Source: Folioceros fuciformis (Eukaryota). Taken from it: a DNA stretch of 63,190 nucleotides. Positions 647-59,713 of this stretch are shown piece by piece. Numbering within the stretch: position 1 is the stretch's first letter; every line of letters begins with the position of its first letter. The stretch is from assembly GCA_049999805.1 (NCBI GenBank), contig JBNGIO010006298.1:294309-357498 (forward strand). Direction: 5' to 3'. The notes below the pieces were generated by a model. It had not been told where the DNA came from. It saw only the letters and a program-made list of their open reading frames with translations, and searched no databases. A program made the translations under genes and the position numbers.

Positions 647-2414
647 ACCTTAAATGACTACAAACACAAACGACTAATTGAAGGGCCAATGATTTCGTAC
701 TTTTTTTTCCCCTTCTATCGTTCTATGTGTTTAGGACAGGGTAGTGATTTCGGTTTACGTCGTAGAGATAAACCTATACATACAGAATACATATAGAGGT
801 CAACCTACGAGATAGGTAAGGGCTAAAGCAAGAGCTTCTAGGATCATTCATTTCTAGAGAAGGAGATTGAGTTCTAAGTCTCATATTTAGAGAGCTATGG
901 AGAGCATAGCTAGTAATTTTGGCGAAGAGTCACAAGGACAATATCGAGTTGCATGGAGATATTCAGACTCTATTTGGGTAGTACTTGGAATAAAAACCAA
1001 TTCCCCTAAATTCTCTTAGGAGGTGTTTTGTCCATGAATATAATTTAGTGATTTGAGAGTTATGGGCTAGTCTCTCTTTAAGAGTAGATGGGCATGATAT
1101 GAGGGCATTGAAATCAGCCTGGATAGCTTCTTCATTGGTTGCATGAAGGGTGTTGGTTTTAGATTTGATGTTGGAAGTGTGAAAAGGGTACTTAAAAAAC
1201 TCCTTGTCAATATCTTGATCCTTGTAGTAGGATATATTATAAGCACCATCATAATAGATAAGGTGATTTGATTATTATGATGGTAGAAAGTGAGATCCTA
1301 TATAATGGAATACAATCATGAAGAAGAAGCATGTGGATAAGGCTTCAAGAATTAAGTCAGTTGTATTTTAATTTCTACATGAAATGGTTTACATAAGTTG
1401 AGTGCATTAGAATAACTGTTGTTTGTTCCCTCTGGTAGCTAAGGCCCCTATTATTGGGTAGGTTAGTTGCTGTTCAGTGGGTTGTATTTGCACAGTCGTA
1501 TCGTCTGCTACTGCTCTAGCATTGCCACTTGCTGAGGCCCAGCTTTGCGCTGGCTTGCCCCGCCGTCCCGTCCAGTATTCCCTCGTAGCTCTTGCGGAGC
1601 AGGGGCCTCTATTGTCTTGGGAGCTACGCGCTTCTGAATAGGTATCAAACGGACGCCCTGAAGCATATCATGACGTGGCAAATTCGGTGAAGGATGCTCC
1701 TGAAATGGAGTCTTTGACGATTTCAGAGCCAGGTGACTTCATCACTTATAGCTTTCCTGTATGCTTCAGGCTTCTCCACAGTGGAGCATGTCATGTCCCT
1801 GTCTGCTAAGCTGGTGTGCGTCTCTGTTTTGTGACAAGGACAGACTCCAGTGACCCCAGTAGATAATGAGCCTCTTCAGTTGCTGCAATTTGTTCTGCTC
1901 AGGATCGAGTGGATGCGAAGGCTCAGTCTGTGAGTTAGGTCTTGTGATGAGGGTAGATCTGTAGCCTGCGGGAAAGGAGACGATTGTCATCCTCTGAGTG
2001 AACAAGTAGGGCACGTGAGACGTGGGAACACATCTCAAGCTGCAGCTGCTGGCTTATCCTGCTGTTTCTCTGGACCGAAATTGTAGCGAATTATCAGGGA
2101 ATGAAGGGGCCCACTGATCTGCGGATGGTGATGATGAATGTTTCCATTGTTCCAGATCACTCTATGTCCCACCCGGCTGGTCACTGATTGGCATGCAATC
2201 TACGGGTTACGTTTATGATCATCAGGGAACAGCCAGCGATTCTGACTACAGCACTGATTTCCAAGCAGTCGTCAAGTTCTTGTTCATAATTCTTCCGGCT
2301 GCAGAGATGTTCGGTGGAAGTTTCGGGTTATCACAGGTTTAGCCTAATCTGTTCTTTTGAAGTCTTCCTTATACTGGGTGTTGCCTTTGTGCAGAGCCTA
2401 CTGTAGTGCAAGGA

Positions 2415-7345: not shown

Positions 7346-11109
<3,764 letters not shown>

Positions 11110-12192: not shown

Positions 12193-12228
12193 CAAGCCAT
12201 ATGAAAGCTTGTAGGGGCTAATGTACTT

Positions 12229-13060: not shown

Positions 13061-14690
<1,630 letters not shown>

Positions 14691-21154: not shown

Positions 21155-21706
21155 GATTCTATCTACCCTTCGATGTGAGTAAGATCCAAGCACGTTCACA
21201 GCTCAGCCATGTAGGCCACTGCTGCGAAGCAACAACCTTCTCGAACGATCCAAAGACTTCTCATAGTTCCGACTTCCCTCCCGCCGCGACCAGGGTTTGG
21301 TACTTGTGTAATAATTTGTTACGAAAGGCGATACAATACAGTATTTCGCCTAGTCATTTGTAACAACAGTTCCATATCCAATGCCGCCGTCAGCCCCGTT
21401 CCGTTGGAGAGGGTGGTCGGAGATTGATACGCATCGTTTTCCAACTTCCACAAACTCAGGTGACACGGGGGTACCGCGCACCAAGGCTCACTGGCGACAT
21501 TTGGCAGAGGACAGACCTTGCCACTTGGCCAGGTATGCCTTGCATGGCTGCCACCATTTCCGCCTGGCATTTCACGTACAACGCGCATCAAGAGCTAGCT
21601 CACAAGAATTTGAGCGTGGGGGCTCTCAAAAGCCGATCAGAAGCTGAGATGCGACAGCAACCTGCTCGTCTGGTATTGGAGACATCTTCAGTCAACTGAG
21701 AACACC

Positions 21707-24700: not shown

Positions 24701-24949
24701 GTTTCGTGGGAGCTATTTGACGAGCAAGGGCGGGAGTACAAGGAATGTATCCTACCTCCCAAGGTGCACAGGAGGCTGGCAGTTGAGGCGGGCTCACCCA
24801 TCGGTTGGCGGGAGTACGTAGGACCTCAGGGACATGTGCTGGGGGTGAGGAAATTCGGGGCAAGTGGTGCTTATCTGGATGTCTTCAAAAAGTATGGATT
24901 CACTGTGGAGAATGTTGAAGAAAACGCTCGACTGTTGCTACAACAGTAA
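21707..24949 (+). CDS. TKL: Transketolase with long N-terminal extension, multi-exon
   Basis: [42 protein letters not shown] (TPP motif), GSADL, YGVREH and [18 protein letters not shown]; ends ...ARLLLQQ*. The start could be 21707 or a downstream ATG. Confidence 0.94.
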
Positions 24950-29365: not shown

Positions 29366-29465
29366 NNNNNNNNNNNNNNNNNNNNNNNNNNNNNNNNNNN
29401 NNNNNNNNNNNNNNNNNNNNNNNNNNNNNNNNNNNNNNNNNNNNNNNNNNNNNNNNNNNNNNNNN
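29366..29465. other. Assembly gap (100 N); further gaps at 30612-30711, 34170-34269 and 36849-36858
   Basis: Runs of n in the sequence. Confidence 1.
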
Positions 29466-30611: not shown

Positions 30612-31057
30612 NNNNNNNNNNNNNNNNNNNNNNNNNNNNNNNNNNNNNNNNNNNNNNNNNNNNNNNNNNNNNNNNNNNNNNNNNNNNNNNNNNNNNNNNN
30701 NNNNNNNNNNNGTTCGTGCATATTGTATCGTATCCATATTGCTGGAGAAAGAATTACGATCCCTTTTAACCTTAAAGTCTACTTTCCCATCTGCCTTTGT
30801 CGTCCATCTTGGCAGGCAAAGTCCTTCGCTATCAAGTATACAAAGCTTCGCAGCTGATGAGTTCTGCTTACTCTATGTACAAGCTCTCCCATTTTGTTGA
30901 TGTCCGAATCCACACCCCTCCAAAGACACAAATTGAGCAACCACGAAAACTTCCAATTTGCTTGGAGAGAGGTGCAGCCTACCACGTGCAGCCTTTATTC
31001 AAATAATGAACCTAATGATCATAGAGCTGGGCTTGTCAGGAGAACGTTGCCATCTTC

Positions 31058-32737: not shown

Positions 32738-34933
32738 TCACTCAGGTGTTAGGCAGCTAGGGGGCAATACTAGTCCCTCGAATGACCCCTTAGCATTTTC
32801 ACAAACTGAAGAGGCGGATTGGTCTTCAGCATCAACGAGGTTAATGTTCTTCAACACAATGCCTTCACATGGCGCATTCTCGCTGCACCTCAGGTTTATG
32901 GCATCTGTAGTTCTAGATGTGCCCCATATGTCTTCATATAGCACATTGGTAATCTTCACAGCTGATGTCTCCTGGTACAAGATTAGAAGGTTAGATTTCA
33001 TAGTATGTACCCAACTTCCTCAACCTAGTGGATGCATACACACAAAAAGTAAGCAAAACAGATTCACAAAATGCACCTCGTTTGTGCAGTTATAGGCAGA
33101 GTCGCAATAATGTTGGTCCACAATGATCGGGTTTGTCACATTATCCATGTACACACTGGAATATGAGACATTGTTAACAAACCCAGAACCTCCCTACATA
33201 CATCAGATGGAAGCAATAAGAGATTGAAAAGATTTGCTCAAGTTAACACATATCATAAACTGTCACTTCCATTAGAGTTCAGCTAAAGACTAGTGGTGAT
33301 ATCTCCCAACTACGTAGTACAATCAGTAGAGAAGCATTGGCATCATCAAATTGAATGTACACTCACCGGCCAAGACTTAATTCTAAGCCCATTAGTGGAG
33401 CTTGACATATTAACATCCTGAACAGTTATGTTACTGACTTGGGCATAAGACTTGTTTCTACCCAAGCCACCAATGCTACAGGTAGGTAATGATCATTAGC
33501 ATAAAGAAAAAACATATTCCTTGGCACAATTTAGTTCTAACCAAACTTGGTGAGGACAATAACAAGTTCACTCTCATGTTCACATGATTTTGAGCTTACC
33601 TTATTCCATGCCCGAACACACAGCTAACACTTTCAATTAGCACATTGTTCGACCCGGTTTGGATTGAGATGCAGTCGTCTCCTACAGTCATGAATTGTCT
33701 TCAAATTCATCAAAGTATACAGTTTGGAATCAAAGGATTTGTTAGACAAGATGAAGGAGGACAATGATCTTAAATCTTAATGCTAACTTACAAACCTGTT
33801 TGAATTGTACAATCCCTGATGATGACATTAGGAGTCTCTTGCAAATGAATGCCATCTGTGTTTGGAGAACTTTCAGGGGCTAAAACTTGAAGGTCTGAGG
33901 CTGTCACGTTGGTGCAATCATCGAAGTCCAAGTGCATCGAAGGAGCGTTCAAGAACGTAAGATTGCTCACCAACACATTTAAACTCTTTGTGATAAACAT
34001 TGACTACAAGAAGAATCAGATTAAGTTAACTCAACAAGCATTAAATATGAACATCATGTCCTTGTGATATAAGTAAATTCATTAAAAATATATGTATCAT
34101 TTGTATTCTTACCCGTGGAGCTCTCTCACATGGCTATAAAATCAACAACAATTTGTGCATACGTTAGCTNNNNNNNNNNNNNNNNNNNNNNNNNNNNNNN
34201 NNNNNNNNNNNNNNNNNNNNNNNNNNNNNNNNNNNNNNNNNNNNNNNNNNNNNNNNNNNNNNNNNNNNNATGCCCCCTCCAGTGATAACGAGAGAATTTG
34301 CTCTAGTGATTTTGATCCAAGAACTTACCTTATCATCGTCCCACGCTTTAGGATCTGAAGGAGCAACAATAGTTCCTTCCACCTAACAGTTGGAAACATA
34401 AGCATAAACCCTAAACCCTAAAAAGTAAACATTTACTTACTTAGATCAACAACCCATTGTTTACCTGCAAAACGATGTTTGATAGACAATTTCCGCCATG
34501 TAGGGTGATAGGGCCAAGTAAGTACTCCCCATCAGTTTGAGGGATAACCATCAAAGCATTACATTGACACTCACAAGCAGCGTGCCATGTACTTGAGAAT
34601 GCCTACAATCACAAGGATACTCATGTCATTAGGATCATGTTGTGACCCATAGAGATTACATCAAACATACTCTATGACTTTAGATACAATATGAGGCAAA
34701 GTACAATTTACATTGGTGTCATCAGACACTCCATCGCCAACCGCACCATGATCCTTAACATTGAAGATGGATGAGGATGAAGTACTATCAAAGTATACAT
34801 GCATGCATCTGATGGGAACATATGTGTTTCGAAGATGCCCGACATAGAACAAAAGAGCAACAAAAATTACAATAATTATTGTTCTTATTACCCATAAGAG
34901 GCAAAAACTATAGGATTGCTTGTGTTGACCCAT
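32738..34933 (-). CDS. Polygalacturonase (glycoside hydrolase family 28), multi-exon, with an assembly gap inside
   Basis: FNVKDHGAVGDGVSDDT plus the four PG motifs SPNTDG, GDDC, GHGISIGGLG and RIKSW; also NPIIVDQHYC and an N-terminal hydrophobic anchor or signal. Confidence 0.92.
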
Positions 34934-37126
34934 TGTATTTATAAACGAATTAACTAAAATATATAGCTTTTTTCCTGCAAATAGTGTGGCAACAATGAAA
35001 TTTCAGAGAAGATATTGATGCATAGACTTAAGAAAGCTAGCTAGATCTATTAGCACAAGCCCTTCGAACAATCCTATCAATGAGAGCCTAAAAATAAGAG
35101 ATTTTGGTCCTCCCAAGCATTAAATAGTGTGCCTTGTGCACCAAAATATAAAGTTAACCGCGAATTGCTGATACTAAATATGTATTTTGATTACGATTTT
35201 AAAAGAAATTCTCTTAGTATTAGGAGTACCTTCTTACACAAAATAACTTAAAGTAGTACTAACTTGATGAACACTATGCTACTTAAGGTCATAAGTATCA
35301 TTGTTGGCATGAGGTGTGCCTTTTGTAAGAACAATTTGCAAGAATGATCCAATTTGAAATGTCGTGTCTATTTTGGTGTTATTATGGTAACCATTTATAT
35401 CATGCTAATTATGAAACATGCCTGAACAGGACTAGATGCTATGTACTTTAATACCCTCACTTAGAATCTAGGCCTTTTGATGTAAAAAGCATGTGCTTTT
35501 ATCTGGTGCTTGTTGCATCTCCTATGTCTACAACATGCTACTAGAGCTTGATGGATGTAAGTGTCTTGGTGATTATATGGTAGCTATTATATGGTTTAGG
35601 GTTTACGTTGCTAAATATGTTACATTTACTATGATGTGGCACAAATTTTACAATTGGGCTTTGATAACATGACATGCTTGTTGTAAATGATTTTGTTAAT
35701 TGTGCAGTAAGTGGTGGCACCACAATTTACACTAAGAGGTATTTGTGGTGATTAACTGGGAGGAATTTACACTAAGAGGTATTTGTGGTGATTAACTGGG
35801 AGGATTTAGACTTGACGACATTCATGGGACAAACTTGCCCGGACTACCCTTGGCTACAACAACCCAACACAATAAGATTTTCTGCACAATTAACATGCTC
35901 ACAGGCTCATTCGCGACTAACAGGCTCATAGGCTCACTCGCGACTAACAGGCTCATAGGCTCACTCGCAACTCACAGGGTCACTTTCAACTAATAGACTC
36001 ATAGGCTCACTTGTAGCTTACGTGCTCACATGCGACTAACATGTTCACAGACTCACTCATAGTTCACAAGCTCACTCACAGCTCACAGGCTTGCTCACAA
36101 CTCAGTGGCTCACTAGCAGCTCACAAGATTATTAGCACTTCATAAGCTTACGGGTTGGAATTGATATGCTCGATCATCGGTTCAGAGGCTTGATCACATG
36201 CTCAAAGGCTTGATCACAGGCTCGATCACACACGCTCACAAGCTCGATCATAGGCTCAAAGGCTCGATTACAGGCTCAAAGGCTCGATCACACGCTCACA
36301 TGCTCGATTATAGGCTCAAAGGCTTGATCACACGCTCACATGATCGATTATAGGCTTAGCGGCTCAACCACACACTCGATCATACGCTCAGAGACTTGAT
36401 CACATGGTCAAAGACTTGATCACATGCTCGATCACACACTCATAGGCTCGATCATAGGCCTAGAGGTTCAATCACATGCTCAAAGGCTCGATCACACACT
36501 CACAGGCTCGATCACATGCTCACAAGCTTGATCACACGCTTACAGGCTTGATCACAAGTTCAAAGGCTTAAAGGGTCGATCACATGCTCACAAGCTTGAT
36601 CACACGCTTATAGACTTGATCACAAGTTAAGAGGATCAGAGGGTCGACCACACGCTCACATGCTCAATCACATGCTCACATGCTAGATTACTCGCTTATA
36701 GGCTTGATCACAAGTTCAGAGGCTCAAAGGATTGCTCACACACTTATAGCCTCAATCACAAGTTCAGAGGCTCAAAGGGTCAATCACATGCTTAGAGGCT
36801 CGATCACACACTTATAGGCTCGATCACACATGCACAGTCTCTATCACANNNNNNNNNNGATCACACACTTATAGGCTCGATCACACATGCACAGTCTCTA
36901 TCACACCCTTAGAGGGTTGGTCACACGCCTTAGGCTTGATCACACACTTATAGGCTCGATCACAAGTTCATAGCCTCAGAGGCTCGATCACACGCTCAGA
37001 GGTTTTGTCACACATTGATAGGCTCAGTCATGACCTCACAAGCTTAGAGGCTCAATCACATGCTCAAAGGATTGATCACACACTCGATCACACGCTTATA
37101 GGCTCAATCACAACCTTACAAGCTCG

Positions 37127-43900: not shown

Positions 43901-46900
43901 CCTACAATTATGAGTGGACAAGATGAAAACGTAGAATAATGGCAACAATAAAGGCATTCATGAGAATAACGGCTGATGGGAGTTGCGGGCCCGTCAGCAG
44001 TCATTGGGAAGGATTGCCCTTAAGATAAATAAGGGGCATCAGGAGAAGAAGGCAGATTGCCTGATGTCTACTAAGTAAGCTAGAAGCAGACGGATCCCAC
44101 AGGACAACATCTTGATGGTCATGAAGCACTGATTCTCCAGGTGAAAGAAAGGACCTTGAATACATCAGGCAATCCCTTGGCATCCAAATACCGGTGGGGA
44201 GCATGGTGAAATCGGGACGGAGGAAATTGAGATAACTCAAACACAAGGGTGTCTTGAGAAATACTCCGCAAAGGAGACACAAGTGGTCTCTAAGTGATTT
44301 ACCACGTGATGACAGATTACTCACGGTTGCGCTTTGCTGGCAAGACGATCTTGAAACTAGCCAGCATACTGGAGGTGGAACCATAAGAATTCTTGCAATG
44401 GCTATGGGTGGAAGTCATTGACCTCTTGTTGTGGCTAGCAGATTGGACAAAAGAGGGAACAAATGTTGATTTTGACAACATGCCATACATAGTGTCATGT
44501 AGAGGACGAGATGGTGTTTCTGCGATTAGGCTGGACCAACGAGAGCACACCTGAAACTAGCACCTACACCCTGAGTTCACCACACACTGTGATTCGTGGG
44601 TCATGAGGCGAGCGTGAGTGGAGTCGAAGCCCAACAAGGGCATTGAGCTTCGAGAAGCCAGAGCAAGTACAGTTAAGAATGGAGCACGAGCGAGTGCCCA
44701 GAAAGAACGACGTATTTACGAGCAAGCATGGTAGCATGTCACTTCCTAATTTTGAAAAAAAATTTAGATGGGCTTTGAACGAAATGGTATCAAAGTACAA
44801 GTCCAAATTCACCGCAGAGATAACACTGAGGAAGATGAGCACCTTCCTGTCTGGGGAGGCTTTGACATGTTACCATGATTGCAAGGAGAAGATCATAGAG
44901 GATTCACGTGCTTTGATGCACGGGGGCAGGATGAAAGGAAGCCTAATGGAGGATGGAAGCATGGGTGGTGCATCAACCTCAACGGAACCAGTCACATGCT
45001 TGGTCGACAACATGTTTCGAAAGTTCGCTGAGATGTTTCTGGTGTCATCGATTGAGAAGATCTAAGAACTTGCAAAATTTTCCACCCAGCCTAATGAACC
45101 ACTAAGGTTGGCCTATTTGTGGCTACGACAATTGGTAAAGGGCACCAAGGTGAAGACCACAAGGGAAGCCCCTCATATTTACATAGAGGAGTTATTTGGG
45201 AGGCAGAGGAGAGTCATTGCTGATTTCTTGCACATGTTACATGATGTTGAATATGAATTGGATCAAGCATATGAGATGGCGAAAAGGGTAATGAAGGGTG
45301 ATGCTGTCACTAACGTCTATTGGGAGGAGCACCATGTGCTGTGAACACCATTGCATGCTCAGGCAAAGAGGCAGGGACGATTCAGTTATCGTGAACCATC
45401 CCAAACCAATTTGCAAAGGAGAACATCTCCAGCAAATTAGAGAAGCGCCAACAACTCAGTAACAAGCAAGTCGGGAGTTAAATGTCCCAGGTGTCGGGGA
45501 ATGCATCGAGCCGTTGATTGTGACTAAAGGGAAGGCAGGTCAAAGGAAAGGGAAATCTGCAAGGTCATGTGGTAGGATGGGACATGCTGAAGCAGCATGC
45601 TGCAAATCACACCCCGAGCTCAGGCCCAAGGGATTGAGTGAAAGGAGTGTGCACAAGCCGGACACAATTGCCAGTTACTCACGAAGGGCGTTGCTCGGAG
45701 ATGTGCATAGGTTGTAAACACAATTGGCTATGGGGGTGAGTGAGAACAAGAATGTCGAGATGGGTGAGGAGGAATGCGACTCCGGGGATGAGATGTGCGC
45801 ACTCATAGCAGAAAAAATGAACTTCCCAAGAACAAGTGTGGAGTTTGGAGCAAGAGTGAAGGCTAAGCCATCGGGCATGCAGACGCAACCTAGCATGCCT
45901 TAGTCATTTTAGCAACTAGAAGAGGGAGTTGAAACGAGCATGTAAGAGAAACATCTGTCTGGTGATTAGATGTTTAAAGATATTATGAGCATGCCCGTGA
46001 TGAGCTTGCAAGATATGGGGTTCAAAGGTGTGCCACTCAAACGAGTCATACGTGCCTTGGTAAAATAGGAGCTGAACCAGATGGAGGTTTTCGCAGGAAT
46101 GCTGGGGTTATAAGGTGGCCATTTGAAGCCGAAAGCCAAGGGCAAAGGTGGCATTGCATTGGTGAAAAACCAAGGAAGCGAAGTTACACTCAATGGTTTC
46201 GCTCCATAAAATGTGTTGATTCACACTTATGCGAATCCAATCATCCTGGGAGCTAGGGTGCAAAGGGCGCTATAGTTGTTTGGGGAAAAGCTCATAGCCA
46301 GCGATGTGACGATCATGACCTCTACAGGCACTAAGGAACAAGTGCTGGGCATAACGAGGGAATCGATAAGCATCGAGTTCAAGTCAGGAACAACTGAAGC
46401 GTGCACCATGCGAGGGCAATGTTTGATATCAACAACTATGAATTATGAGGTGCTATTTGGAGCGGACGCCAGTCACGGGCCAGCCATGGGCGTGGACCCA
46501 CTACAATCTGTTGCATTCTACCAGTTGGGATGGCAACAGGGGGATTCTACGCGAGTGGCCATAATACCTCTGGAGATGACAAGGCGCAGTGACAGACAAA
46601 AATGTGTACCGACCAGCTTTTCCTATGCTACTCAAATCCCACATAGGGGAGACCTATGAGAGGAGACACTAGACCTCATGAGTGAAGAGGTAAGAAATGA
46701 GCGGGAAGGAAAAATTGTTCTCGCAAATTAGGAAACGCCCGTGCTGCGAAGCAGATTACATGCAGAATGACGGTGACCGAAGAGGTGAATGGATTGTAGT
46801 CCAAGCAGTATGTGCCTAGAGAATTGCTTGCCGAGGGCTAGGGTCTTAGGATTAAAGATGTGCTGATACAAAACTGTGTCATAGCTTGGAGACCAGGGGG

Positions 46901-46909
46901 TAAAGGAAA

Positions 46910-47845
46910 CACCTAATGGAGTTGTGTTCCAGAATTAGCAGTGGGCTGGAGGTGGTGTAGCGGTGTGGAATTCTGGTGAGGACGTATACGTGTGTAGAGC
47001 TAGATAACTATGCATGTGCAATGAACAAGGTACGCATACTTGGCCTACGAAAGGAATATCCCGACATGCTCGGCAAAGGAGCAATAAAAGGATGCTAGAG
47101 CCGTCTCGCACATGATACATAGATGGTCGGAAGGCAAAAGTTGATGGTATTTAGGTCACCTGTGGACATGCTACTAGCAGGATGGAAGTGCAAATCTTTG
47201 TCCAAAGCGGGCTAAGGAAACGAGGAACGACTAGATCAGGTGAGAGAGGTGATTCGAATCCTTAAAGAAGTATAGAGGATGAATCCTTCATGCTGGTACA
47301 TATTGGAGAATGTCTGTGAGGCCTTTGACCGGCAAGAACGAGTAAGAAAGGATTACAGTCAGCTACGAAAATCGTTGGGGAATGAATTCATTATCGACAC
47401 AGTGTAGACTGGTTCATAAGCACACCGCGTTCGTAGATTTTGAACAAACATTGCCAATGTGAAGATATTGAGGTAGCGCAGGAGGGCCACTCGACCTCCC
47501 GCACGACTGGTGAATGAAATTCTAGAAGACGGTCGCAAGGTGCAAGAGGTAAAAAGGGGAGACAACCCTCCAACTTTCTAGTCAACGTGGTGGGGGAACC
47601 AAGGAGGGCGTGGCCCACACTTGTAAGTAAGTCACAACCCTATGAATTTGGGCGCAATAGGATGGGGTGGTACTCAACCAGAAAGGTGAGGAAGTCGATG
47701 AGCCGCCAATCATGGAATGGGAGTGCGGAATGGGCTTCCGGACGAGCGCAATTGCAACCCAAGGAATCACAGAAGCCTACAAATGCAAGCTGGTGGGACA
47801 AGCGTACGACCTATGGTGTGTATAGTGGTTAATTTGTGTGGGTAT
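46910..47845 (+). pseudogene. Cytosine-5 DNA methyltransferase domain within the gypsy polyprotein (pseudogenised)
   Basis: Reading through stops: motif I-like LMELCSRISSGLE; II CVELD; IV VDMLLAGWKCKSLSKAG (Cys codon 47189-47191); VI YILENV (47297-47314); VIII GS*AHRVRRF*TN (47411-47449); IX/X EWECGMGF...KLVGQAYD. Canonical order and spacing, with two frameshifts near the end. Confidence 0.82.
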
Positions 47846-49513
47846 CATCACACAATTGATGAACTGTGTGCATCGAGGAATAACATACTTAGAAATCACA
47901 CGAAATGATAAGAGTAAGCTTGCATACGGACAAGAGGAGTTATGACGGAATGTATGTGGAGCAAAAACCAGTTCACGTAAAAAAGGGGCACCAGACAGGC
48001 ATGTTTGGCAAATATGTCAAGAGTTGGAGGAGGAGGATCAGCAAAAGATCCGATTGATGTTGGAGGAAAATCGACACGCCTTCGCATTTAGTTGGGAGGA
48101 GTTGGGTAGATATGATCGGATTAAGTTCCAAATCCTAACCAAGACTGATGAAACTGTGTATAGGCGAAGGCATCGCCTTAGTGCCATGGAATGGGATATC
48201 ATGGACTAGTGTTGTAAGGAGTTGGTAGCAGTAGGATTGATCCGGAAATCCACATCTCAATATGCTACTGCGATAGTCTTGCCTATGAAGAAGGATGAAA
48301 ACGGAGAGTGGACAAACAAACGCATGTGTGGAGACTATCGGGCGCTGAATGATGTGAGCCCTATGAAGAGGTACTCCATTCCCACACCAGATGAGATCTT
48401 TGATGCAATCGAAGAAGCAACTTATTTAATCACACTTGACTTTTGACCCGAATTCAATCATATAGTCATTGAGGAAGATCATAAATGTAAAACCGCCTTG
48501 TGGGGGAAAGATCAATTGTGGTAGTGGGAGACGATGCCGTTTGGATTAAAGAACACATTGAGGTACTTTCAGCAGGTAGCTGACATGAAGCTGCAGGGAC
48601 TGTTGTTTGTCAGGTGCTATATTAATGACATATTGGTGTTCAATAACATCTTGGAAGAGCATTTGGAGCATCTAAGGATGCTACTACAAAGGCTGGCTAG
48701 GTCAAGATTAAAGGCACACCCAAAGAAGTGTAAGTTTGCATATAAGGAGACTGAATACTTGGGACACAAGATTATTCCTAGTAGTGTGTTGCCGCAACTG
48801 GCTAAAGTTTAGGCAATCAACAACATGCCCAAGCCCAAAGGTGTGGCTACACTTAGAGCATTTTTAGGCTTGGTAAACTATTATCGAAGATTTATTCGAG
48901 ACATGAGCGTGGTGTGCCTGATGAAAATAGGGTGTTAATACATTAGGTTTCGTTTGGTGAATGCATTCATAGCTACTATAAGTCTAGGTGCCCGTTCATT
49001 TGGGTTACGTCCTTTATGAAAGGGTGTGTCTATTCACCCTACCTAGCTTAAGTTCAGTTATTTGTCTATGCTGTACATAATTATTTTTTAATCAATATAA
49101 TAATGTAATTGTTTTATAGCAATTGGTCTACACCAATTTCCATATTTTCTCATGGTATCAGAGCAAGGTTTAGGTGTAGATTACACTTGTGATAATGATT
49201 ATTAAAATCTGCACATTCTGATGTGCAGGACAATGTATTTTGTTTATATGTTTTATTGTTGCTTTCTTTTAAAGAAACTATTTTAAAACATACTTCAAGA
49301 AATAGGTTTATAGCTTTCTTGATTTTATATTTAGAAGATTTGCACTTCTAGTAGGTTGTTCTAGTGTATCCATTGTCAGATTGCACTCTAGCAATCTGGC
49401 ACTAGGCACGCTAGAACAACTGCCAGAATTGGCAAATATTTAATTATAGAATCATTCACAAAGTTACAATTGTTTCTTGAAAAATAACAAAATACAAAAG
49501 CTTGGCCAAATGA

Positions 49514-50209
49514 ATGGCCAATTTGGTGGACAGGCAGCAAGAGCGGCCACGCCCTGCTGAGCGCATCCAACAGAGGAATGGCCACAGAGGACAACGAATT
49601 CAAGAGGGCAGGTTGACTTTTGCAGAATCACTTTACCATCAAACTCTGGATTGGATTCTTCAAACACAAGACCATCCTGAACAATCCCGGCTGGTGAGAG
49701 ATTCCTTCAACAATCTGCTTGAGGCTATCTTCCCACAACAGCGCTATTTGTTGCTTCCTCCACCACCCAGGAATCAAATTAATCTTCCACCCATTGTAAA
49801 CGATAACCCTAGGGGTTTCTTGACAACACACACATCACCATATGTTAGTGTGTCACAATTAAATGCAAGAATAGAAACACTTCAATAGCATGTTGACGAG
49901 CGTTTTCAGAGCATTCGTCACAAGATAGCTGAAGTCAGTGTTGACTTGCAAGATTTGAAGGAACGTATAGGACATTTGGACTTCAAGTTGCTTACCTTGC
50001 TTAAGCCCGTTTTGCTAACAAATCCTGCACTTAGAGGTGTTGCTAACAAGAATTATAAACAACACACTTTTGACGCTCCAAATTCCTGTCCTTCATGCTC
50101 TGTTTATGCATTTAACAGATGGGAGATTAGACATCAAAGGATAGAAAATAGATTAGCAAATCAATAGGCCAATTTACCTCAAGTTGGTAGATTTGCTCAC
50201 CCCTTGTAG
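49514..50209 (+). pseudogene. Extra ORF upstream of gag in the copia element (~231 codons, two in-frame TAG)
   Basis: ORFs 49514-49888 and 49946-50167 share one frame, which continues to TAG 50207-50209; coiled-coil-like segment LNARIETLQ...LQDLKERIGHLD. Confidence 0.6.
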
Positions 50210-50217
50210 ATAGGGCT

Positions 50218-51547
50218 TGTGGAGTGATTTCTTGCACACCCAAGAACCACCAAGGGGCCACACTTCCCCTTATTATCGTTGCAGTCTTATGATTCGCTCC
50301 CAAGGGAGTGAACTAATGTCAAGGTTACTTACATCTCCCTAATCTCACCCTATCTATTAGCATATACCAAGTGCTACAGCAATAGATCAGAATTCTCGGT
50401 CCTGTCTTCGGCTCCTACCACAACACCAACCCTAGCCTCAACAAAATGAGAACTCCAGTATTGTCTTCAGCCCTCGTTTCCAACTCCAAGTATCAATCAC
50501 TTCAGTGCTGAGAGGAGGCTCCAGCCCCAAGTCTGGCCTCCAACTCTCAGCACCTAGTGCTAGCTACCTCCGCAGCTGAACGAGAACCTCAACTTCAGCT
50601 AGCTCCTCACTCCAGCTTCAACACTTCATTCCACCACTTCAGCACTTCACTCCAGTATTTCAGTCCTTCACTTCAGCACTTCAGTCCTTCACTTCAGCAC
50701 TTCACTTCATCCTCCAGCCCCTCACTTCAGCTCAACTCCTCACTTCAACACTTCCACTTCCAAAATCTGCAACTCAACCCCTCTCTCCTGCAATTTGGAA
50801 CACAACAGCCTTCCCTCTTGCAGCCTTCAAGGCAGAGACGAGGCCTAGGGCTGGGTAGCCTCCTTAGCTCACGGCCTTGCAACCTCACCTCAGCCAGCAT
50901 GCAAGGTGGTCAGCCATTGCGGATCAGGCCACACGAATCTTTGCAGTCTTGGGATCCTCTACGTTCCCCTAGTGGCAAGGGAAATCAGGACCTTGGTTTA
51001 GTCTCCACCAGCTCAGCGCCCTAAGCCAGGAGTTCTGCACCCAAGGTCCAGGGAAATCGCACCGTAGACAGCCCCCTCCTCAATGGCAGGTCTAGCCTCT
51101 TATACTACCTTGGCCCAAACCTCTATCTCTATCCATTAGGGTTAGCCTCAATCAATCACCCAGCAATCTCTCTCTGACCTAAGCCGCCCCTAATTCTGAC
51201 CTAAACCCGACTTTGACCTAACCCTAACTTTGACCCAAACCTAGTTCTGACCTAATAGGGGTTGTGTCCCATGGACACCACTGGGTGCCCTTACCAAAAT
51301 TGACCAACCTCTCAAGACTACCAAAATGGTCAGTGCCTCTCAACACTCTCCCTCCTCTCTCAAATCATTCCATCCCTTCTCTCAGATCATTCCAGTAACC
51401 CTTCAAAGATGCGTCTCGCCTCACCATTAATCTAGCTACTAATCTAACCTAATCTTTTAACCATTTCACCACAGGGTTCACTTAGAGATTCCCAAAAAGA
51501 GAAATCCTACTATTTTCCAAGGACCTATTCAGCATGTGGAGTCCACA
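50218..51547 (-). mobile_element. 1330-bp solo LTR nested in the copia 5' region
   Basis: Termini TGTGGA...TCCACA form a 6-bp inverted repeat; perfect TSD GGGCT (50213-50217 and 51548-51552). A TATA-like TATAAG on the minus strand near 51100 suggests the orientation. Confidence 0.85.
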
Positions 51548-51698
51548 GGGCTGCTCCTGCAGTTTATCTAAGATGCAACAGTAGCATCTTACCTCTTCCC
51601 AGTCTTTCACTTCAATTTGTACCTTGTCTGGATAGGCTACAAAGCTGCATACAGCCATTTCTCCTAACAGTTAGGATAGAATTACTACATTCTAATAA

Positions 51699-54600
51699 AT
51701 GGCAGACACCACTACTGTAGTTAGTGATATTTTTAAGGAGAAAGATAGATTTGGGGGGACTGACTATGACATCTGGGTCATGCGTATGAAAGGAGCCTTA
51801 CAAAGTAAGAAGCTATGGAAGATAGCAACAGGAAATGAATCACTTCCAACACCTACTGCATCTTCTGAATCTTCTCCTTCTTCTGCTGAAAAAAAAGATA
51901 CCAAGAAGCTTGGTATACAAAGGATGAAGCTGCAATGCACCTATTGAGAAGTGGACTAACCTCTGACATGCTGCGACAGACTTCTGGCTACAATACATCT
52001 TTTGAGATATGGACCTGATTACATGAGCTGTACGCAGGTGTTAATACCACAAGTCATATGAAAGCCCTTCGCAACATTCAAAATTGCAAAATGAGAGAAG
52101 GGGAGACAGTTGAAAAACATGTTGGGCATTTTAGAACACTTGTTTTTAAGTTAGAAAGTGCTTCACAGGAGGTTCTATCTGATGAGCTGCTTACCTTATA
52201 TTTCATGATGTCTCTCCCTGACTCATGGTCACACTTTGTGACATCTTACAATGCTTCTTAGCTACAGGCTTCAAAGATAGCTAAGGCTGCAGGTGTCACA
52301 ATACCACAGACAACATTTTCTAAGTTAGTGGGAGCTCTTCTTCAGGAAGAAGCTACAAGAGGACAAAACAGGTGTGCTGGCAAGCACCAGGCTATTTACA
52401 CCACAAATAAAAACAAGGGCACGAGGCCCAACTTCAAAGGTAAACAGAATACCTTTCAAGGTGCTGGTGCCTCACGGCGAGGGACAGCACAGAAGAAACC
52501 CAAGAAGTCTGGAAAATGCCACTGGTGCCAGATTCCAGGACATTGGGAAAATGAATGTCGAAAGAAGCAGGCCGGAGTACCTCGCAAGGAGGGCAACTCT
52601 ACTTCTGAGACACATGTTGTGGTGAAAAAGCAAGGCTCACCTTCTGCCCTTATAGTAGGGATTAGGAAGTTTGCATATCCTCTTGTTAAACCGACCTGTT
52701 TGTCTGCAAACACACAAGGTAAACCAGTCAGCGAGTGGTACCTTGATACAAGTGCAACACCGCACATATGCTTTGACAAAAATGCCTTTGTCACATACGA
52801 GTTAGTAGACAATCAGTTTGTTTACTTAGGTGATGACCGATCACTAGTGTCTCCAGGCAGAGGCATTGTAGAAATTCCAGTCCCTTCTGGAGTTACACTC
52901 ATATTGAAAGATGTGTACTATGTTCCAGAAATGACTAGGAATTTCATCTCTGTTAGGAGACTCAACATGGATAATAATACTTACATCCTATTTACTCCTA
53001 CAGAGTGTAGGATCATTGATGCCTTTGACCATCGTAAGATCCTAGCTTATGGGTCATCCTCACATGACCTCTTCCGTCTGCATACAGACAGCCATATAGC
53101 ACAAACACATTTAGCTTCTAAGTCTACAGAATCTACTAGTAAGTTAAAAGACAAAGCTAAATTATGGCATGCTCGCCTAGGTCACCCACATAGTGCTAAG
53201 TTACAGAAACTTGCACACAATGACCTGTATGCTGATGGAAAAATTGGCACATTGCCACCCTTACCTCTTTGTGAAGCCTGTGTTTTTTCCAAACGTCATC
53301 AGGCAGCTTTTAAGAATAAAGCTCCCTACAGGGCTTCAGAAGTTCTTGAGCTGGTTCACACAGACTTCTGTGTACCTCTCTCACAGCCTTCAATTAGTGG
53401 AGGCAAATATTTCCTGACATTCACAGATGACAAAACGAGGTTTTTCATTGCTTATATCCTGAAAGCCAAAAGTGAATGCTTTTCTCTCTTCAAAGGATAT
53501 ATGAAGTACACAGAACGCTGGACTGGCAAGCAGTTAAAAACCCTCAGATCAGATAATGGAGGTGAATTTACTTCTAGTGAATTCCAATCTTTTTGTACAG
53601 TAGAGGGAATAGGAAGGCAACTCACAGTTGTGTATACACCACAGCAAAATGGTGTGGCAGAACACTTGAATATGACCTTGCAGGAAATGACTTCCTCTAT
53701 GCTTCATCAAGCTTCTCTGCCCCTTCGCTATTGGGCTGAGGTCCTCATGACAGCAGCGTACTTGCATAACAGGCTGCCTACCAATGCCCTTGTAGGACAG
53801 ACCCCCTATGAAGCATTCTTTGGCAGAAAACCAGCTATCTTACACCTTAGAACCTTTGGATGCATAGCTTATGCATTTATCCCAAAGAAGAAACGTCCTA
53901 AGTTAGCTGCTAAAGCCAAGAAATATCTTGTGATAGGCTACACTAAAGGTATTAAAGCATATAAATTATATGATGTACCTGAGAACACTGTGGTTTATGC
54001 CCGCAGTGTTACTTTTGATGAACAACAAGTTTGGCAGCCAGTGGGAGCTTCTCCCACTTCTTCAGATAACTTTGATTTATCTGCTCTTCCTAACATCACT
54101 GTTTTCCCTGATTACCCTAATGAGGAGTTTGCTCCTGAAAGGGAGGAAGACAACGAGCACAGTGATAATGAGGATAATTAGCAGGAGGTTGCAGATGCTG
54201 AACTTGATTTTGCTGCTGATATTCAAGACCAACCTCCTCATGCCTTTTCGGATCCTGAACCCATTGTTCCAGCAGATGTTGAGCTTGATCCTGATCCTGT
54301 TGTTCTTGTGGATAGTGATCCTGAGAATATTCCAGCTCCTATTGAAGAGCCAGCTCCTATCCCTGTGCGTCATTATCCTACAAGAGACAGACGTGCACCA
54401 GATTATTATCAATCACAAGACTTTAGGGGACCTTCCATACATGCAGTTGATCTTGATCCTGTGGAACCTCAGACTTATGAAGAAGCCTTAAGTCGCCCTG
54501 ACGCTGCTGAATGGAAGAAAGCCATTCAATCTGAATATGAATCTTTGATAAAAAATGGAACATGGGAGTTAACTAAACTACCTCCAGGACGCAAGCCAAT

Positions 54601-56062
54601 ATCTTGCAAATGGGTGTTTAAGCTAAAGGTCAAGGTAGATGGTACCTTTGATCGTTATAAAGCCAGGCTTGTAGCCAGAGGCTTTTCTCAAATACCGGGC
54701 CTTGACTACCTTGAAACTTATGCTCCTGTTGTTAAGCTGGCCACATTTCGCACTATTTGTGCATTGGCAGCACACAATGATTATGAGTTGGACATGTTTG
54801 ATGTAAAGACAGCCTTCTTACATGGAAAGCTGGATACAGAAATTTACATGCAACAGCCACAAGGATACGAGGTGAAAGGGAAAGAAGATTATGTCTTACG
54901 TTTAATCAAGACCCTGTATGGTCTAAAACAATCAGCTCTTAAATGGAATGTTGTCTTGGATGAAGAGCTGCGAGCATTAGGCTTTGTCACATGTGTCTCA
55001 GATGGGAGCCTATATGTATACAGGACAAATGAAGTGGTTTGTTACCTGGCAGTATACGTTGATGACCTCATATTGGCTTGTAACAGTCCCACCTTCATCA
55101 AAGACATGAACAAGCTATTAGCAACCAAATTTGAAATGACACACTTAGGTGCCTTACAAAGCTGTCTTGGTATTCTAATTCAGCGTGACAGAAAGAAGAG
55201 AACTATCTCATTAACACAGCCACGTTACCTTCTTAGTAGTGCGGAACAACTTGGATTGAAGGATGTTAAACCTTCTGCAACTCCTTTGCCTTGTGGACTG
55301 AAGATGAGTAAAACCATGTGTCCTGATACACAATTAGAAAAAATGAAGATGAGTTTAGTCCCTTACAGACAAGCTGTAGGCAAACTCATATATGCAGCTA
55401 ACACCACTAGGCCAGAAGTAGCTTATGCTACTAGCGTCGTATCACAGTATCTGGAAAACCCAGGGCAAACACACTGGACAGGTGTTAAGAGAGTTTTCAG
55501 GTATCCAAAAGGAACTCACAGCATTGGTGTAAAATACAACCACATACCTGGAGTGCCCTTACATCTTGATGTCTATACTGATTCAGACTATGCTGGAGAT
55601 ATAGACACAAGGAAATCAATTTCTGATTATGTTGTTATGTTGGCTGGAGGTCCCATTTGCTGGTCCAGCAAGAAACAGCCTAATGTAGCCCTATCTAGCA
55701 CTGAAGTAGAATATCGGGTACTTACAGCTGCTGCAAAGGAGATAGCTTGGTGCAAGCTGATGTTCAAGGAACTTGGAATTCCCCTTCCAGCCTGCACCAC
55801 AATCCACACAGATAACCAAGGGTCTATGAGCTTGGCACATAATCCTGTTTTTCACTCCAGGACTAAACATGTGGAAGTTGAGTATCACTTTATACGCGAC
55901 CTCATCAAGTCTGGAGATATCAGCCTTGAATATGTGCCTACGTCAGAAAATCCAGCGGACATTTTAACCAAGCCCCTAGGAAGGGAGCTACATGAAAAAC
56001 ACATGAGAGTACTTGGCATGGGAAGCCATGAAGGCAATCCCACTGCCATGTCTAAGCCCTAG
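51699..56062 (+). pseudogene. Copia gag-pol polyprotein (gag, Zn knuckle, PR, INT, RT, RNase H) with a few lesions
   Basis: CHWCQIPGHWENEC, WYLDTSAT, LWHARLGH, LRSDNGGEF, YKARLVARGF, FDVKTAFLHG, LYGLKQS, YVDD, YTDSDY, RTKHVEVEYHFIR, ADILTK. Frameshift at the A-run ~51890; stops near 52016, 52259 and 54179. Confidence 0.95.
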
Positions 56063-56071
56063 CCTACCAGG

Positions 56072-57142
56072 CTATTCATAACCCCAATCAGGACTATCAT
56101 CATTGTCTGAATCTCCAGGAGGAGATTTAAAAGAACCCCTACTCTTTGAGGTGGTGGAATCACCAAGCTTCTCCCATGAAGCATATTCCACAGTGTCAGA
56201 GGAAAAGACTTCATTCTCCAAACGAGGAGACTGTCTCTTCTTCCTCTCCTTGTAGGAGATTCTGTCCTTAGATTCCAAGCTTTGCTCCTCCTCCAGTCGC
56301 TCTTCAGACCCTGTGAGGAGATAGTGGGAGCAAAGTCAGACAAGTGATGATAATTAGCAGGGGGTTAGGAAACAGTTATGCCACAAGCTACCATCAGCAA
56401 GAGGCTTACTGTAGAAGCTGATCATGTAGCCTTTACACTCCAAAAACATTTCAACCCTCACTCTCTTCATGGTGATGCCAGAAACTTGGCACTTGTACCA
56501 CAGCGGGCTGCCCGGCACTTCCCAAGTACTAGGTGTGATCACCTTGGTCTCTGACATGGCGTTCCTTGGAACTGGAAATCTTGGTGGAACTGGAGGACGT
56601 TGGTCAGCACCTTCGTACTCGAACTCACCTCGATTGAAGCGCCTCTGTTCCACAACAGCCCGTGAGTACATGAGCTCAGGAATGCGGCTCCTGGATAGGC
56701 CGCCCATAGCCTCGGCTCTCGAAGATTCGGCAGTCCTAGTCGCCGTCCTCCCTCGTGTTGTGCCTGAACCTTTGCCCGCATCCACAGCGCCTGAAGAACG
56801 TGTTGCTGGAGTTGCTGTAATCTAGCCAGCTGTCTTCCCACCTGTGATGCTGGAAAGACGAAAGCTTGGAGGGGAGACGGAGAGTCCGGATGTCGCGATG
56901 TCGCGCCGCTGGCTCAAGCTTGCTCTGGTAGTGCCTCGCGGCCGCCCCCACGATCTCCTAACGCCGCTAGCTCCTCCTCCTCGTGTGTGTGTCTCTGGCT
57001 GCTGTGCAGGTTGATGCTCTTCCGCCCATGCTCCAATGGCAATTGTTCTAGCCACAGGGGATGTGATGAACCTTCCTGCAGAGTCCCGGTGGTATGTGCG
57101 CCGCTTGGCTGCTAGAGCATCATCAGACCCTGAAGACGCCAT
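56072..57142 (-). pseudogene. Antisense ORF (~356 codons, three in-frame stops) between pol and the 3' LTR of the copia element
   Basis: ORF-track pieces 56822-57376, 56354-56785 and 56072-56278 are in one frame; ATG at 57142 (MASSGSDD); stops TAG 56822, TAA 56354 and TGA 56336. Confidence 0.6.
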
Positions 57143-57925
57143 TGTTACTTTCCTCAGCCTTTGCTCAACGAGCTTTATTGCCAAAAGGCATGGGACGTAA
57201 ATAGTAGCTACAAGAAGTGCGAACCTGTAGACGGTCGCCTTCACACACAGTAGCGCCACCTTGAGCCTACGCCCCAAAGTACACACAAGGATCGCGAGGT
57301 TCTCAGCTGGAGTCACAGTCTCCACAACTCTGAACATAGTGGAGGGGAGGAAAACCGACCCCATAATGATTAACAAGTGGGAGTGATGAGAATAGGGTGT
57401 TAATACATTAGGTTTCGTTTGGTGAATGCGTTCATAGCTACTATAAGTCTACGTGCCCGTTCATTTGGGTTACGTCCTTTATGAAAGGGTGTGTCTATTC
57501 ACCCTACCTAGCTTAAGTTCAGTTATTTGTCTATGCTGTACATAATTATTGTTTAATCAATATAATAATGTAATTGTTTTATAGCAATTGGTCTACACCA
57601 ATTTCCATATTTTCTCAGTGCAAACCGTTGCATGAGTTGCTCAAGAAGGGTGTGTCATGGTGCTGGGGTTCGAGTCAAGAGCAGGCATGGCAAGAGCTGA
57701 AAGAGCAACTTTCGGAAAGACCAATGCTGAGCTGACCGGACATTGGAAAGACGTTTGTTGTGTACACAAATTGGAGTGCTGCATGATTGGGAGCAATCTT
57801 AGCACAGATTGACGCTAGTGGAAAAGAGCGAGTGGTGGCCTATGCCAACAGATCCAATAACTCAGCTGAGGCGAATTACTCTACATACGAAGGAGAGCGC
57901 CTAGCTAGAGTTTGGGGAGTCTTAC

Positions 57926-58090
57926 TGTAAAGTTACACATTAATAATATATTCCAAAAAGTGTCATGTATATACCACATATACCAAAAGTCATGTCTCTT
58001 CAACTAACCTACACTAACAACCCTAACTCTACCTGTGGATATGTTTATAAGACATAAACCCTAACAAAATAGAACGGGTTTATCCTAACA
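57926..58090. mobile_element. 165-bp solo-LTR-like insertion in the gypsy RNase H
   Basis: TGTAA...TAACA termini; perfect TSD CTTAC (57921-57925 and 58091-58095). Removal restores WGVLHFMVYLFG. Confidence 0.85.
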
Positions 58091-58141
58091 CTTACACTTC
58101 ATGGTGTATCTATTCGGTTGGAACTTTCAGCTGGTTACACA

Positions 58142-58264
58142 TCACCAACCATTGCATCGGCTAATCACCAACCATTGCATTCGGTACTCACCAACCATTG
58201 CATTGGGTACTCACCAGGCGTTGCATTGGGTACTCACCAATCGTTGCATTGGCTACTCACCAAC
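58142..58264. repeat. 23-bp minisatellite, about 5.3 copies, inside the gypsy RNase H
   Basis: tcacca at 58142, 58165, 58188, 58211, 58234 and 58257. Confidence 0.9.
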
Positions 58265-59578
58265 ATGAAGCTCAATGAAAAGCTTACCCGGTAGGCACTT
58301 CTACTCTCAGAATACGACGTTGAGATTATACACGATGCAAGGAGGACGATCTAGCCCTAGTGATCACTATTGCACGAGAGCATGGTCAACTCGTAGAGTC
58401 TGGGAGAGACATATGGAAATGCAGCCAATGCATACAATTACTAAAAGATGGTCACATTGGTGGTGTCAATGAAAGCACCAAGAAGAAGTTGAGGAAGTGT
58501 ATCAATCGATATTCTTGGAAGGATGGCAAGATATTTGTCACAGACTAAGGCATCACAAAAGAGGTGTTTTCAATGATGAGCAGAGAAGGAGTTGTAACAG
58601 AGGTACGCAACAGACTGGGTCACTTTGGAGTCAAAAAGACTCATCACATAGTCAAAGCCGTATTTTCGTGGAGAGGCATGCACAGCGGCGTTGAACAAGT
58701 TGTAGCCAAGTGTGCTGCTTGTGATGCAGTGAAAGCGAGATTCGGAGGGCAAGATCATGTGTTGCATTCACTTCCTATATGTGGATTGTTCTGTAGGTGG
58801 TCTGTTGACCTCATGCCTAAGCTCTTGATGACCGCTCAAGGCAACAAACATTGCATGTTGATAATTGAGCATTTCTCATTATACATCCAGGGCGTTCTTA
58901 CAACGCGTTCTCAGGCGATTTGGAAGTTGTGTGGAAGTACTGATGGATTAATGGAATGAATTTTGAGGAGAATTCCAAGTGTTGCTTGATCAGAGTCTCA
59001 TTGACCATCGTCGCTCCTTGCCAGATCATCCACAGGTAGATAGGTTAGTGGAAAGGTTAGTCCAGACTTTTAAAAATGCATTAATGAAATATTGTAGGGA
59101 GGTGGAACCCAAGTGTTGGGACGAATTGCTGCCATATGTGGTCTTGGGCTACGGAGTGAGTGTTCAGGTAGCATTGGGCAAGTTCAGCTCATATTTCATC
59201 ATGTTCAGGCGGAATGCAGTCGTGCTAAACATCGTGGCTGACTCGTACTCCAAACCAATGAATTGGGCTGGAAACTCTCAGAATTGAGACCAGTTGAGAT
59301 ACACTTTCACTAGGGGTGGATCATGGAAGCCCAAACCTTGGAAATTTGAAGTGGGTGACTTTGTGTATCTACAGCATAGGCCCACCAACACTCTTGATGT
59401 GAGCACTAGTCATTTGATTTTACGAGTTGTGAATGTGGGGGAAATGGGTGTAATCAAATTGGAAGGGCGGGACACATGAAGGTGTAGGGAGCATCTCAAA
59501 CACTTGGCTCCTTGCCATTTGCCCAATCTAGATACCAAGTTGCAATTGCAAGCTTGGAAACCTCCGATAGATTTTCAT

Positions 59579-59713
59579 TGTGAACAGTGTGGACAAACAA
59601 CCAATGAAGAGTTGATGCCATTGTGTGACGGATGCAATTGAGGGTATCACATATTTTGTGTTAAGCCACCGTTGCTGGCAATGCCGGAGGGAGAGGGGTT
59701 TTGTTCAGAATGC
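59579..59713 (+). pseudogene. PHD finger (C4HC3) at the C-terminus of the gypsy integrase
   Basis: CEQC-x11-CDGC-N*GY-H-IF-C-VKPPLLAMPEGEGF-CSEC; all eight Zn ligands present, one TGA. Confidence 0.9.

Follow-up and report, generated by a model that had tools for sequence, protein, structure and literature searches.

The stretch analysed here, referred to as the window, comprises 63,190 nucleotides of contig JBNGIO010006298.1 (positions 294,309 to 357,498, forward strand) in the assembly deposited for Folioceros fuciformis (GCA_049999805.1), and all positions given below are those of this 63-kb window. A sequence-only reading of the DNA had proposed that it contains a Ty3/gypsy retrotransposon which carries, between its protease (PR) and reverse transcriptase (RT), a cytosine-5 DNA methyltransferase (C5-MTase, DNMT) of its own. 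The element is decayed and is split by another retrotransposon. The following features were found at the locus.

44607..45720, + strand: putative gag region, assigned by position only, with a zinc-knuckle-like stretch near 45553-45640
46138..46614, + strand: decayed retropepsin-like protease with 2 stops, found with a profile built from what precedes the DNMT in 13 PR-DNMT relatives
46907..47563, + strand: DNMT3-type piece 1 (motifs I, II, IV, VI and VIII), best phmmer E 1.1e-24, 9 in-frame stops
47536..47652, + strand: DNMT3-type piece 2 (target-recognition stretch, NVVGEPRRAWPTLV), after the first frameshift, profile positions 219-257
47658..47830, + strand: DNMT3-type piece 3 (motifs IX/X), after the second frameshift, 2 stops, the start of a 271-bit profile match
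47831..48917, + strand: linker and reverse transcriptase, covered by the 271-bit match and by tblastn with the relative P0276 (aa 1231-1623), ended by the copia insertion
48919..57617, + strand: young Ty1/copia element inserted into the gypsy RT, which it splits, recognised by its repeats, TG...CA ends and domain order, and not part of the DNMT element
57618..58339, + strand: rest of the RT and the RNase H (RH) of the gypsy element, tblastn with P0276 aa 1611-1774
58408..59464, + strand: integrase (INT) in several frames, tblastn with P0276 aa 1837-2234, E 6.8e-43

The methyltransferase segment, 46907-47830 on the forward strand, was read by three-frame translation of 46600-48100. It measured about 308 codons, in agreement with the approximately 310 codons claimed from the sequence, and is spread over three frames that together contain 11 stops (9, 0 and 2 in pieces 1, 2 and 3) and two frameshifts, located near 47551-47563 and 47628-47661. 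Each of the C5-MTase motifs quoted in the sequence-only reading was present where that reading had placed it. The frame of 46907 holds motifs I-VIII (LMELCSRISSGLE, CVELD, DMLLAGWKCKSLSKAG, YILENV and AHRVRRF*TN), the frame of 47536 holds the middle piece NVVGEPRRAWPTLV, and the frame of 47658 holds motifs IX/X (EWECGMGF...LVGQAYD). The translation and the alignment to relatives showed that the motif order I-X is canonical and non-rearranged. Motif I, the F-x-G-x-G motif that binds S-adenosylmethionine, is degenerate in the window copy, which reads ELCSRISSG where the relatives have ELF-GGIG or ELF-SGIG, while motif VI, YILENV, keeps the Glu-Asn-Val.

Homologs were sought with phmmer in a database of 1.84 billion representative proteins, using as query a 240-residue read-through of the segment with X at the stops. 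At E<=1e-3 there were 401 matches, of which 159 reached E<=1e-10, and the best had an E value of 1.1e-24. A hidden Markov model (HMM) built from 18 PR-DNMT-type relatives scored 165.9 bits (E 3e-52) at 46910-47602 and never rose above -1.3 bits elsewhere in the six frames of the window. A chance resemblance to C5-MTases was ruled out by shuffling: the real read-through scored 176.5 bits with the same model, and none of 500 shuffled versions of it exceeded 6.2 bits. By tblastn, piece 1 matched the Klebsormidium nitens protein GAQ93235.1 (E 3.6e-18) and the Closterium protein GJP34393.1 (E 3.8e-24), and piece 2 matched P0277 with 57.7% and P0005 with 48% identity over 26-27 residues.

Two results obtained with the window copy itself weigh against this assignment. 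Its match to the Pfam methylase family PF00145, which spans aa 86-150 on profile positions 61-125, had an E value of 0.0096 and a score of 15.8 bits, below the 22-bit cut-off, and a single-sequence search of the PDB returned no methyltransferase match. Consequently, the family assignment rests on homology to intact relatives. All six of the top matches that were scanned against Pfam were Ty3/gypsy polyproteins with PF00145, five of them above the curated cut-off, and 19 of 22 relatives in a second set matched PF00145 at E<=1e-3. Membership in PF00145, by which the sequence-only reading had proposed to check the domain, thus held for the relatives but stayed sub-threshold for the window copy. 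The database relative P0127 fell only into generic PF00145 clusters in the ESM Atlas, which gave no pointer to the host. Judged by this homology, the segment 46907-47830 is a real C5 cytosine methyltransferase domain that lies within a Ty3/gypsy pol between the protease and the reverse transcriptase.

The type of methyltransferase was indicated both by profile and by fold. Profile A1, built from the window copy and 17 relatives, matched human and mouse DNMT3A (1.3e-25), DNMT3B (8e-25) and also DNMT3C, followed at lower significance by DRM (9e-13), M.HhaI (3.5e-11) and DNMT2 (1.7e-5); the DRM match was confined to profile positions 4-132. The fold was assessed on the intact relative P0028 and not on the decayed window copy. 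The predicted structure had a mean pLDDT (predicted local distance difference test) of 92.4 and a pTM (predicted template modelling score) of 0.91, and in a Foldseek search with this model every listed row was a DNMT3A, DNMT3B or DNMT3C chain, with a best E value of 2.1e-19 and a target-normalised TM score of up to 0.80. The DNMT3-like character that had been claimed from motif VIII is therefore borne out by profile A1 and the P0028 fold, and by these measures the domain is a non-rearranged DNMT3-type C5-MTase.

The relation of the domain to the surrounding element was examined with a second profile of 637 positions, designated B-type, that covers the DNMT-to-RT stretch of eight PR-DNMT-RT relatives. 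It matched colinearly in three window frames, at profile positions 7-246 (144 bits, E 6e-46), 219-257 (20.7 bits, E 1.6e-8) and 264-635 (271 bits), and the last of these matches runs unbroken from motifs IX/X into the reverse transcriptase. This colinearity with PR-DNMT-RT relatives indicates that the DNMT domain is native to the element and not a later insertion. The sequence-only reading had named as its possible undoing a family without the segment between PR and RT; the relatives were found to carry it at the same place.

The protease upstream of the domain (46138-46614) aligned to positions 146-303 of its profile with 102.5 bits and an E value of 6e-33, and its active site is mutated, with HTY where the family has D-T-G. 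Downstream, Pfam RVT_1 matched 48447-48917 (E 7.4e-15). The full-length relative P0276 (2327 aa) aligned by tblastn on both sides of the copia insertion, with the DNMT, RT, RNase H and INT domains all in the same order; residues 1611-1774 had 49% identity (E 9.7e-24) to 57618-58339, plus two short pieces, and Pfam Integrase_H2C2 matched 58549-58959 (E 3.4e-11). The window element has the order PR - RT - RNase H - INT of a Ty3/gypsy pol. The proposal of a Ty3/gypsy element with a C5-MTase between PR and RT is upheld by the profile, by tblastn and by the Pfam assignments of the relatives.

The copia element that interrupts the gypsy RT added 8.7 kb to it. Its long terminal repeats (LTRs) are 234-bp direct repeats at 48919-49152 and 57384-57617 that are 98.3% identical; the element has TG...CA ends, flanking 5-mers GTGCC/GTGCA and a Pfam domain order with rve before RT. 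The element is nearly intact, with a gag-pol that is almost open: its two open reading frames (ORFs), gag-INT of 639 aa and RT-RH of 626 aa, are parted by a single stop at 54179-54181. The leader of the copia element is unusually long, approximately 2.5 kb (49153-51698), with a proline/serine-rich repetitive ORF at 50512-51024. An ORF on the reverse strand at 39029-39451 looks like the beginning of a copia-type gag, with an N-terminus similar to that at 51699-51947, and suggests a further copia fragment. The ratio of observed to expected CpG showed no distinctive signal: it was 0.62 in the 5' part of the gypsy element and 0.64 in the region of the host genes, and the copia element had 0.34.

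The window copy is without any function: its DNMT is broken by the 11 stops and two frameshifts and has a degenerate motif I, its protease carries a mutated active site, LTRs could not be detected, and the RT is interrupted by the younger copia element. The verdict of the sequence-only reading that this copy is dead was accordingly confirmed.

Several observations count against the reconstruction of the element, 1) the gag region, 44607-45720, matched no Pfam family at E<=0.01, and phmmer comparison with the N-terminal parts of 13 relatives gave non-significant matches only (best iE 0.013), with weak ones near 45553-45640, 2) no direct or inverted repeat that could represent the gypsy LTRs was found between 41300-44700 and 59200-63190 at a word size of 7 (best E 0.48), and 3) a single copy of the element was examined. 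Decay of the LTRs, or a position beyond the window, may explain why they are missing. With these points weighed, it is very probable that 46138-59464 on the forward strand is a decayed Ty3/gypsy pol of the lineage order PR - DNMT - RT - RNase H - INT, with its DNMT3-type domain at 46907-47830, in a host that is likely bryophyte-grade.

The domain organization of the relatives was mapped on the best 150 of the 401 phmmer matches using local jackhmmer probes and classification rules of our own. In 70 of the 150 the order was RT-RH-DNMT-INT, often with a PHD finger after it, and in 21 it was PR-DNMT(-RT-RH-INT), the order found in the window; the remaining 59 were unclassifiable fragments that were too short. 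The two domain orders corresponded to two groups in the DNMT tree. An IQ-TREE phylogeny was computed from the window copy together with 35 PR-DNMT-grade members and 12 members with the RT-RH-DNMT-INT order. In it, the latter formed a clade with support of 90.8/94, and the window copy fell outside this clade. A point against a closer placement is that the window DNMT has a long branch (1.37) and that supports around it are low (0/18 and 89.9/72); no sister could be assigned to it within the PR-DNMT grade. With 401 representative clusters and two domain orders, the family goes well beyond its published extent.

Only seven of the 30 clusters that were looked up carry an organism name, five of them Closterium, one Klebsormidium and one Scenedesmus. 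The named members with the order found in the window are all from streptophyte algae (K. nitens GAQ93235.1 and Closterium NIES-53, -54, -65 and -68), and Scenedesmus sp. PABB004 has the RT-RH-DNMT-INT order. The nearest relatives of the window copy are from metagenome or Logan assemblies. A profile search of long proteins gave 16 matches, none of them known from a land plant and K. nitens being the only named organism, which is weak evidence. The sequence-only reading had connected the element with the DNMT-bearing retrotransposons reported from dinoflagellates and charophyte algae. Domain order and tblastn support its membership in the lineage that has the architecture of KnitGypsy-Dnmt3, from a charophyte; by sequence comparison the window element is a member of this known lineage and no new kind of element.

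The identity of the host was addressed with the genes that share the window with the element. The window has a gene-dense segment at 2361-25000 that is followed by a repeat-rich half, and the following genes and gaps were located.

2361..2837: protein phosphatase 2A (PP2A) A subunit
about 7516..10953, - strand: DEAD-box helicase
13061..14687: S-adenosylhomocysteine hydrolase (SAHH), with two short introns of about 86 nt
21614..24949: transketolase
29366..29465, 30612..30711 and 34170..34269: N runs (scaffold gaps) of 100 N each
36849..36858: N run (scaffold gap) of 10 N

The first gap is bordered on either side by identical 46-bp copies of one sequence (29320-29365 and 29476-29521). Diverged tandem or satellite-like arrays with 65-85% identity occur at 36020-37126 and 40490-41700, on both sides of the gap at 36849-36858, and a shorter tandem array lies at 12228-12579, just upstream of the SAHH gene. 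Rfam and tRNA scans gave no match.

The last exon of the transketolase gene had 71-75% identity to lycophyte, conifer, liverwort, moss, fern and angiosperm sequences alike, which is also the range of transketolase identity among those plant groups themselves. In the transketolase tree, computed from a set without algae, the window was sister to a moss clade (82/80). The SAHH query, 485 aa from three exons, was 90% identical to the EukProt transcript P0300, 88% to Sphagnum, Physcomitrium and Diphasiastrum, 87% to Calypogeia, and 80-83% to Mesotaenium, Spirogloea, Closterium, Chara, Klebsormidium and Chromochloris. The mean identity was 86.3% to 10 embryophytes against 81.2% to 6 algae; the corresponding pair of values is about 88 and 82.5 for embryophytes themselves and about 83 and 81 for algae, the pattern of the window being nearer to that of the embryophytes. 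In the SAHH tree, the window and P0300 (100/99) were sister to the mosses (86/77), and the named Zygnematophyceae, Chara and Klebsormidium each formed clades that did not include the window.

The host would be no land plant at all if the DNA came from an unsampled streptophyte alga, such as a lineage without a named protein in the sequence sets compared, or if the contig of the element had been mis-scaffolded or were a contaminant. With an algal host, the finding would fall inside the published host range, since charophytes are already known to carry such elements. This explanation is somewhat unlikely and has the following in its favor. An approximately unbiased (AU) test on SAHH did not reject a position of the window on the algal side (p 0.39, log-likelihood difference 2.25), the backbones of both marker trees are unresolved and the transketolase set contains no algae to root it, the closest SAHH relative, P0300, is from a EukProt transcriptome, all named relatives of the element are algal, and the four N runs separate the marker genes from the DNMT element. 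However, two independent markers adjoin the mosses, the SAHH identity is higher to embryophytes than to algae, and the named algal clades exclude the window; in addition, the same repeat families recur on either side of the gaps that start at 29366 and 36849. The claim of the sequence-only reading that the host is a land plant with flagellated sperm therefore gains from the position of SAHH and transketolase beside the mosses and from the embryophyte-like identity, but is qualified by the AU test and the gaps. On these markers, a bryophyte-grade land plant is the probable host.

The catalytic motif IV was compared in an alignment of 138 retrotransposon DNMT domains. Its Cys is kept in 137 and the motif-VI Glu in all 138, and motif VIII, AHRxRxYWTN, is conserved among the relatives. 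Immediately before the catalytic Cys, 76 domains have Glu, 51 have Pro and 11 have some other residue, and a Trp is found two residues before the Cys in 120, as in W-E-C-Q. In the window copy motif IV is WKCK, with the Cys kept and Lys in place of Pro. The sequence-only reading had noted a WxC rather than a PC context; both the Cys and this context are present, but they reflect a trait of the whole family and not a defect of the window copy. For a C5 methyltransferase, the W-E-C-Q active-site loop is unusual and constitutes a testable enzymological oddity.

A second explanation, which we regard as unlikely, is that the domain of this family is in practice no C5 DNA methyltransferase, being instead a pseudo-enzyme, a DNA-binding module or an RNA methyltransferase with another role in retrotransposition. 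Two observations speak against a methyltransferase function and for this explanation: the canonical Pro of the Pro-Cys pair is replaced in the majority of the relatives, as it is in the window copy, and, according to the accessible part of PMC5890265, no methylation was detected when the K. nitens gypsy DNMT (KnitGypsy-Dnmt3) was expressed in yeast. The same source called the yeast result inconclusive because human DNMT3B also failed in that assay, and it gives a Ka/Ks of <0.2 for the K. nitens copies. Moreover, the near invariance of the motif-IV Cys and the motif-VI Glu together with the conserved motif VIII is the pattern of a working active site, and the relatives that keep Pro-Cys include K. 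nitens. This conservation points to a constrained active site in the relatives, although most members lack the textbook Pro.

If the domain is a methyltransferase, as we prefer, it would in live relatives be translated as part of Pol, after which it might be freed by the protease of the element or stay fused before the RT. It would then use S-adenosylmethionine and the motif-IV Cys to methylate cytosines of the cDNA or the fresh insertion of the element itself. Such self-methylation of the cDNA or insertion is put forward as a hypothesis by de Mendoza et al. 2018 in the available portion of PMC5890265. Less decayed or live copies with the Trp-Glu-Cys catalytic loop may exist in the same or related genomes.

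A third explanation is that a piece of a host DNMT3 gene, or some unrelated sequence, landed in the gypsy copy after its insertion. It could be argued from the one copy inspected and from stops that are denser in DNMT piece 1, with 9 in 219 codons, than in the linker and RT together, with 7 in 420 codons. It is nevertheless extremely improbable: in relatives from Closterium, Klebsormidium and metagenomes the homologous domain occupies the same position in colinear PR-DNMT-RT order, and the window domain clusters with retrotransposon DNMTs with E values down to 1e-24 to polyproteins. The explanation was rejected on the colinear profile and tblastn matches with PR-DNMT-RT relatives.

Retrotransposons with their own cytosine methyltransferase have been described in dinoflagellates and one charophyte, as far as the consulted part of PMC5890265 reports; there, SymbioDIRS-Dnmt3 is stated to methylate CG de novo in yeast, and the DIRS and LINE methyltransferases of Symbiodinium are considered independent acquisitions. 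A 2025 paper (PMC12344493) cites, in the portion available, only earlier streptophyte and dinoflagellate cases, and a May 2026 preprint (10.64898/2026.05.21.726589), again as far as its accessible text goes, lists only 'streptophytes (Gypsy-DNMT3)' plus dinoflagellate cases. A literature search that lay outside subscription journals and supplements found no account of a land-plant retrotransposon with a DNMT. The possible novelty is thus the host, likely a land plant, and the window may hold the first land-plant case. We lean slightly towards the reading that the host is a bryophyte-grade land plant with the element resident in its genome; this would then be the first DNMT3-carrying Ty3/gypsy lineage in embryophytes, whether by survival of the algal PR-DNMT-RT lineage onto land or by later transfer. 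Retrotransposons that carry their own methyltransferase invert the usual picture of a host that silences the transposon. A relic in a land plant, if true, would extend the host range of the lineage to embryophytes and would make it worthwhile to look for live copies in the genomes of bryophytes, lycophytes and ferns.

Among known systems, the closest solved relatives of the domain, by profile and by the fold of P0028, are the cellular enzymes DNMT3A/3B and plant DRM2. DNMT3 shares the motif order I-X with the window domain, whereas DRM is rearranged and the window domain is not. In contrast to DNMT3A/3B and DRM2, the retrotransposon domain has no PWWP or ADD regulatory domains and is embedded in Pol, and its motif IV is W-E/P-C instead of the S-P-C of the cellular enzymes.

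Retrotransposon-encoded cytosine methyltransferases also occur in Symbiodinium, where SymbioDIRS-Dnmt3 and SymbioLINE-Dnmt belong to other classes of element (DIRS and LINE) and are likened here by the description in the available text of PMC5890265. The RT-RH-DNMT-INT-PHD elements, represented by the pol KAF8056149.1 (P0016) of Scenedesmus sp. PABB004, have a homologous DNMT in a gypsy pol and share the W-E/P-C-Q motif IV and the ENV/ENT motif VI with the PR-DNMT family, but differ in that the DNMT is preceded by RNase H and followed by the integrase, with a PHD finger behind the latter, and in forming a separate clade. Members with this order are mostly from metagenome assemblies, with one chlorophyte, and no paper on the architecture was found for DNMT3-type domains.

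The Closterium gag-PR-DNMT-RT polyproteins GJP34393.1 (NIES-68), CAI7886383.1 (NIES-54) and CAI5973665.1 (NIES-65) have the domain order of the window element and are among its best named matches, with 33-34% identity, an E value of 4.5e-22 (P0005) and a motif IV of W-E-C-Q. They are from zygnematophyte algae and are annotated as hypothetical or unnamed, and a literature search found no paper on them.

A gypsy element with its own DNMT is a rare design, known so far from green algae only; the published counterpart is KnitGypsy-Dnmt3 of K. nitens (GAQ93235.1, P0031), in which, as in the window, a non-rearranged DNMT3-type domain follows the protease in a Ty3/gypsy Pol (PR 598-691, DNMT 834-1073). 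The window copy is homologous to it, with approximately 29-30% identity and E values of 5.5e-18 by phmmer and 3.6e-18 by tblastn. The two differ in several respects. Motif IV is FPCQ in K. nitens, with Pro-Cys kept, and WKCK in the window. As far as the accessible part of PMC5890265 shows, the K. nitens copies are intact and under purifying selection, whereas the window copy is dead, and the legend of Fig. 4c in that source gives DIRS-like repeats for KnitGypsy-Dnmt3, whereas no terminal repeats were found in the window element. Finally, the host of KnitGypsy-Dnmt3 is a charophyte, while that of the window element is probably an embryophyte.

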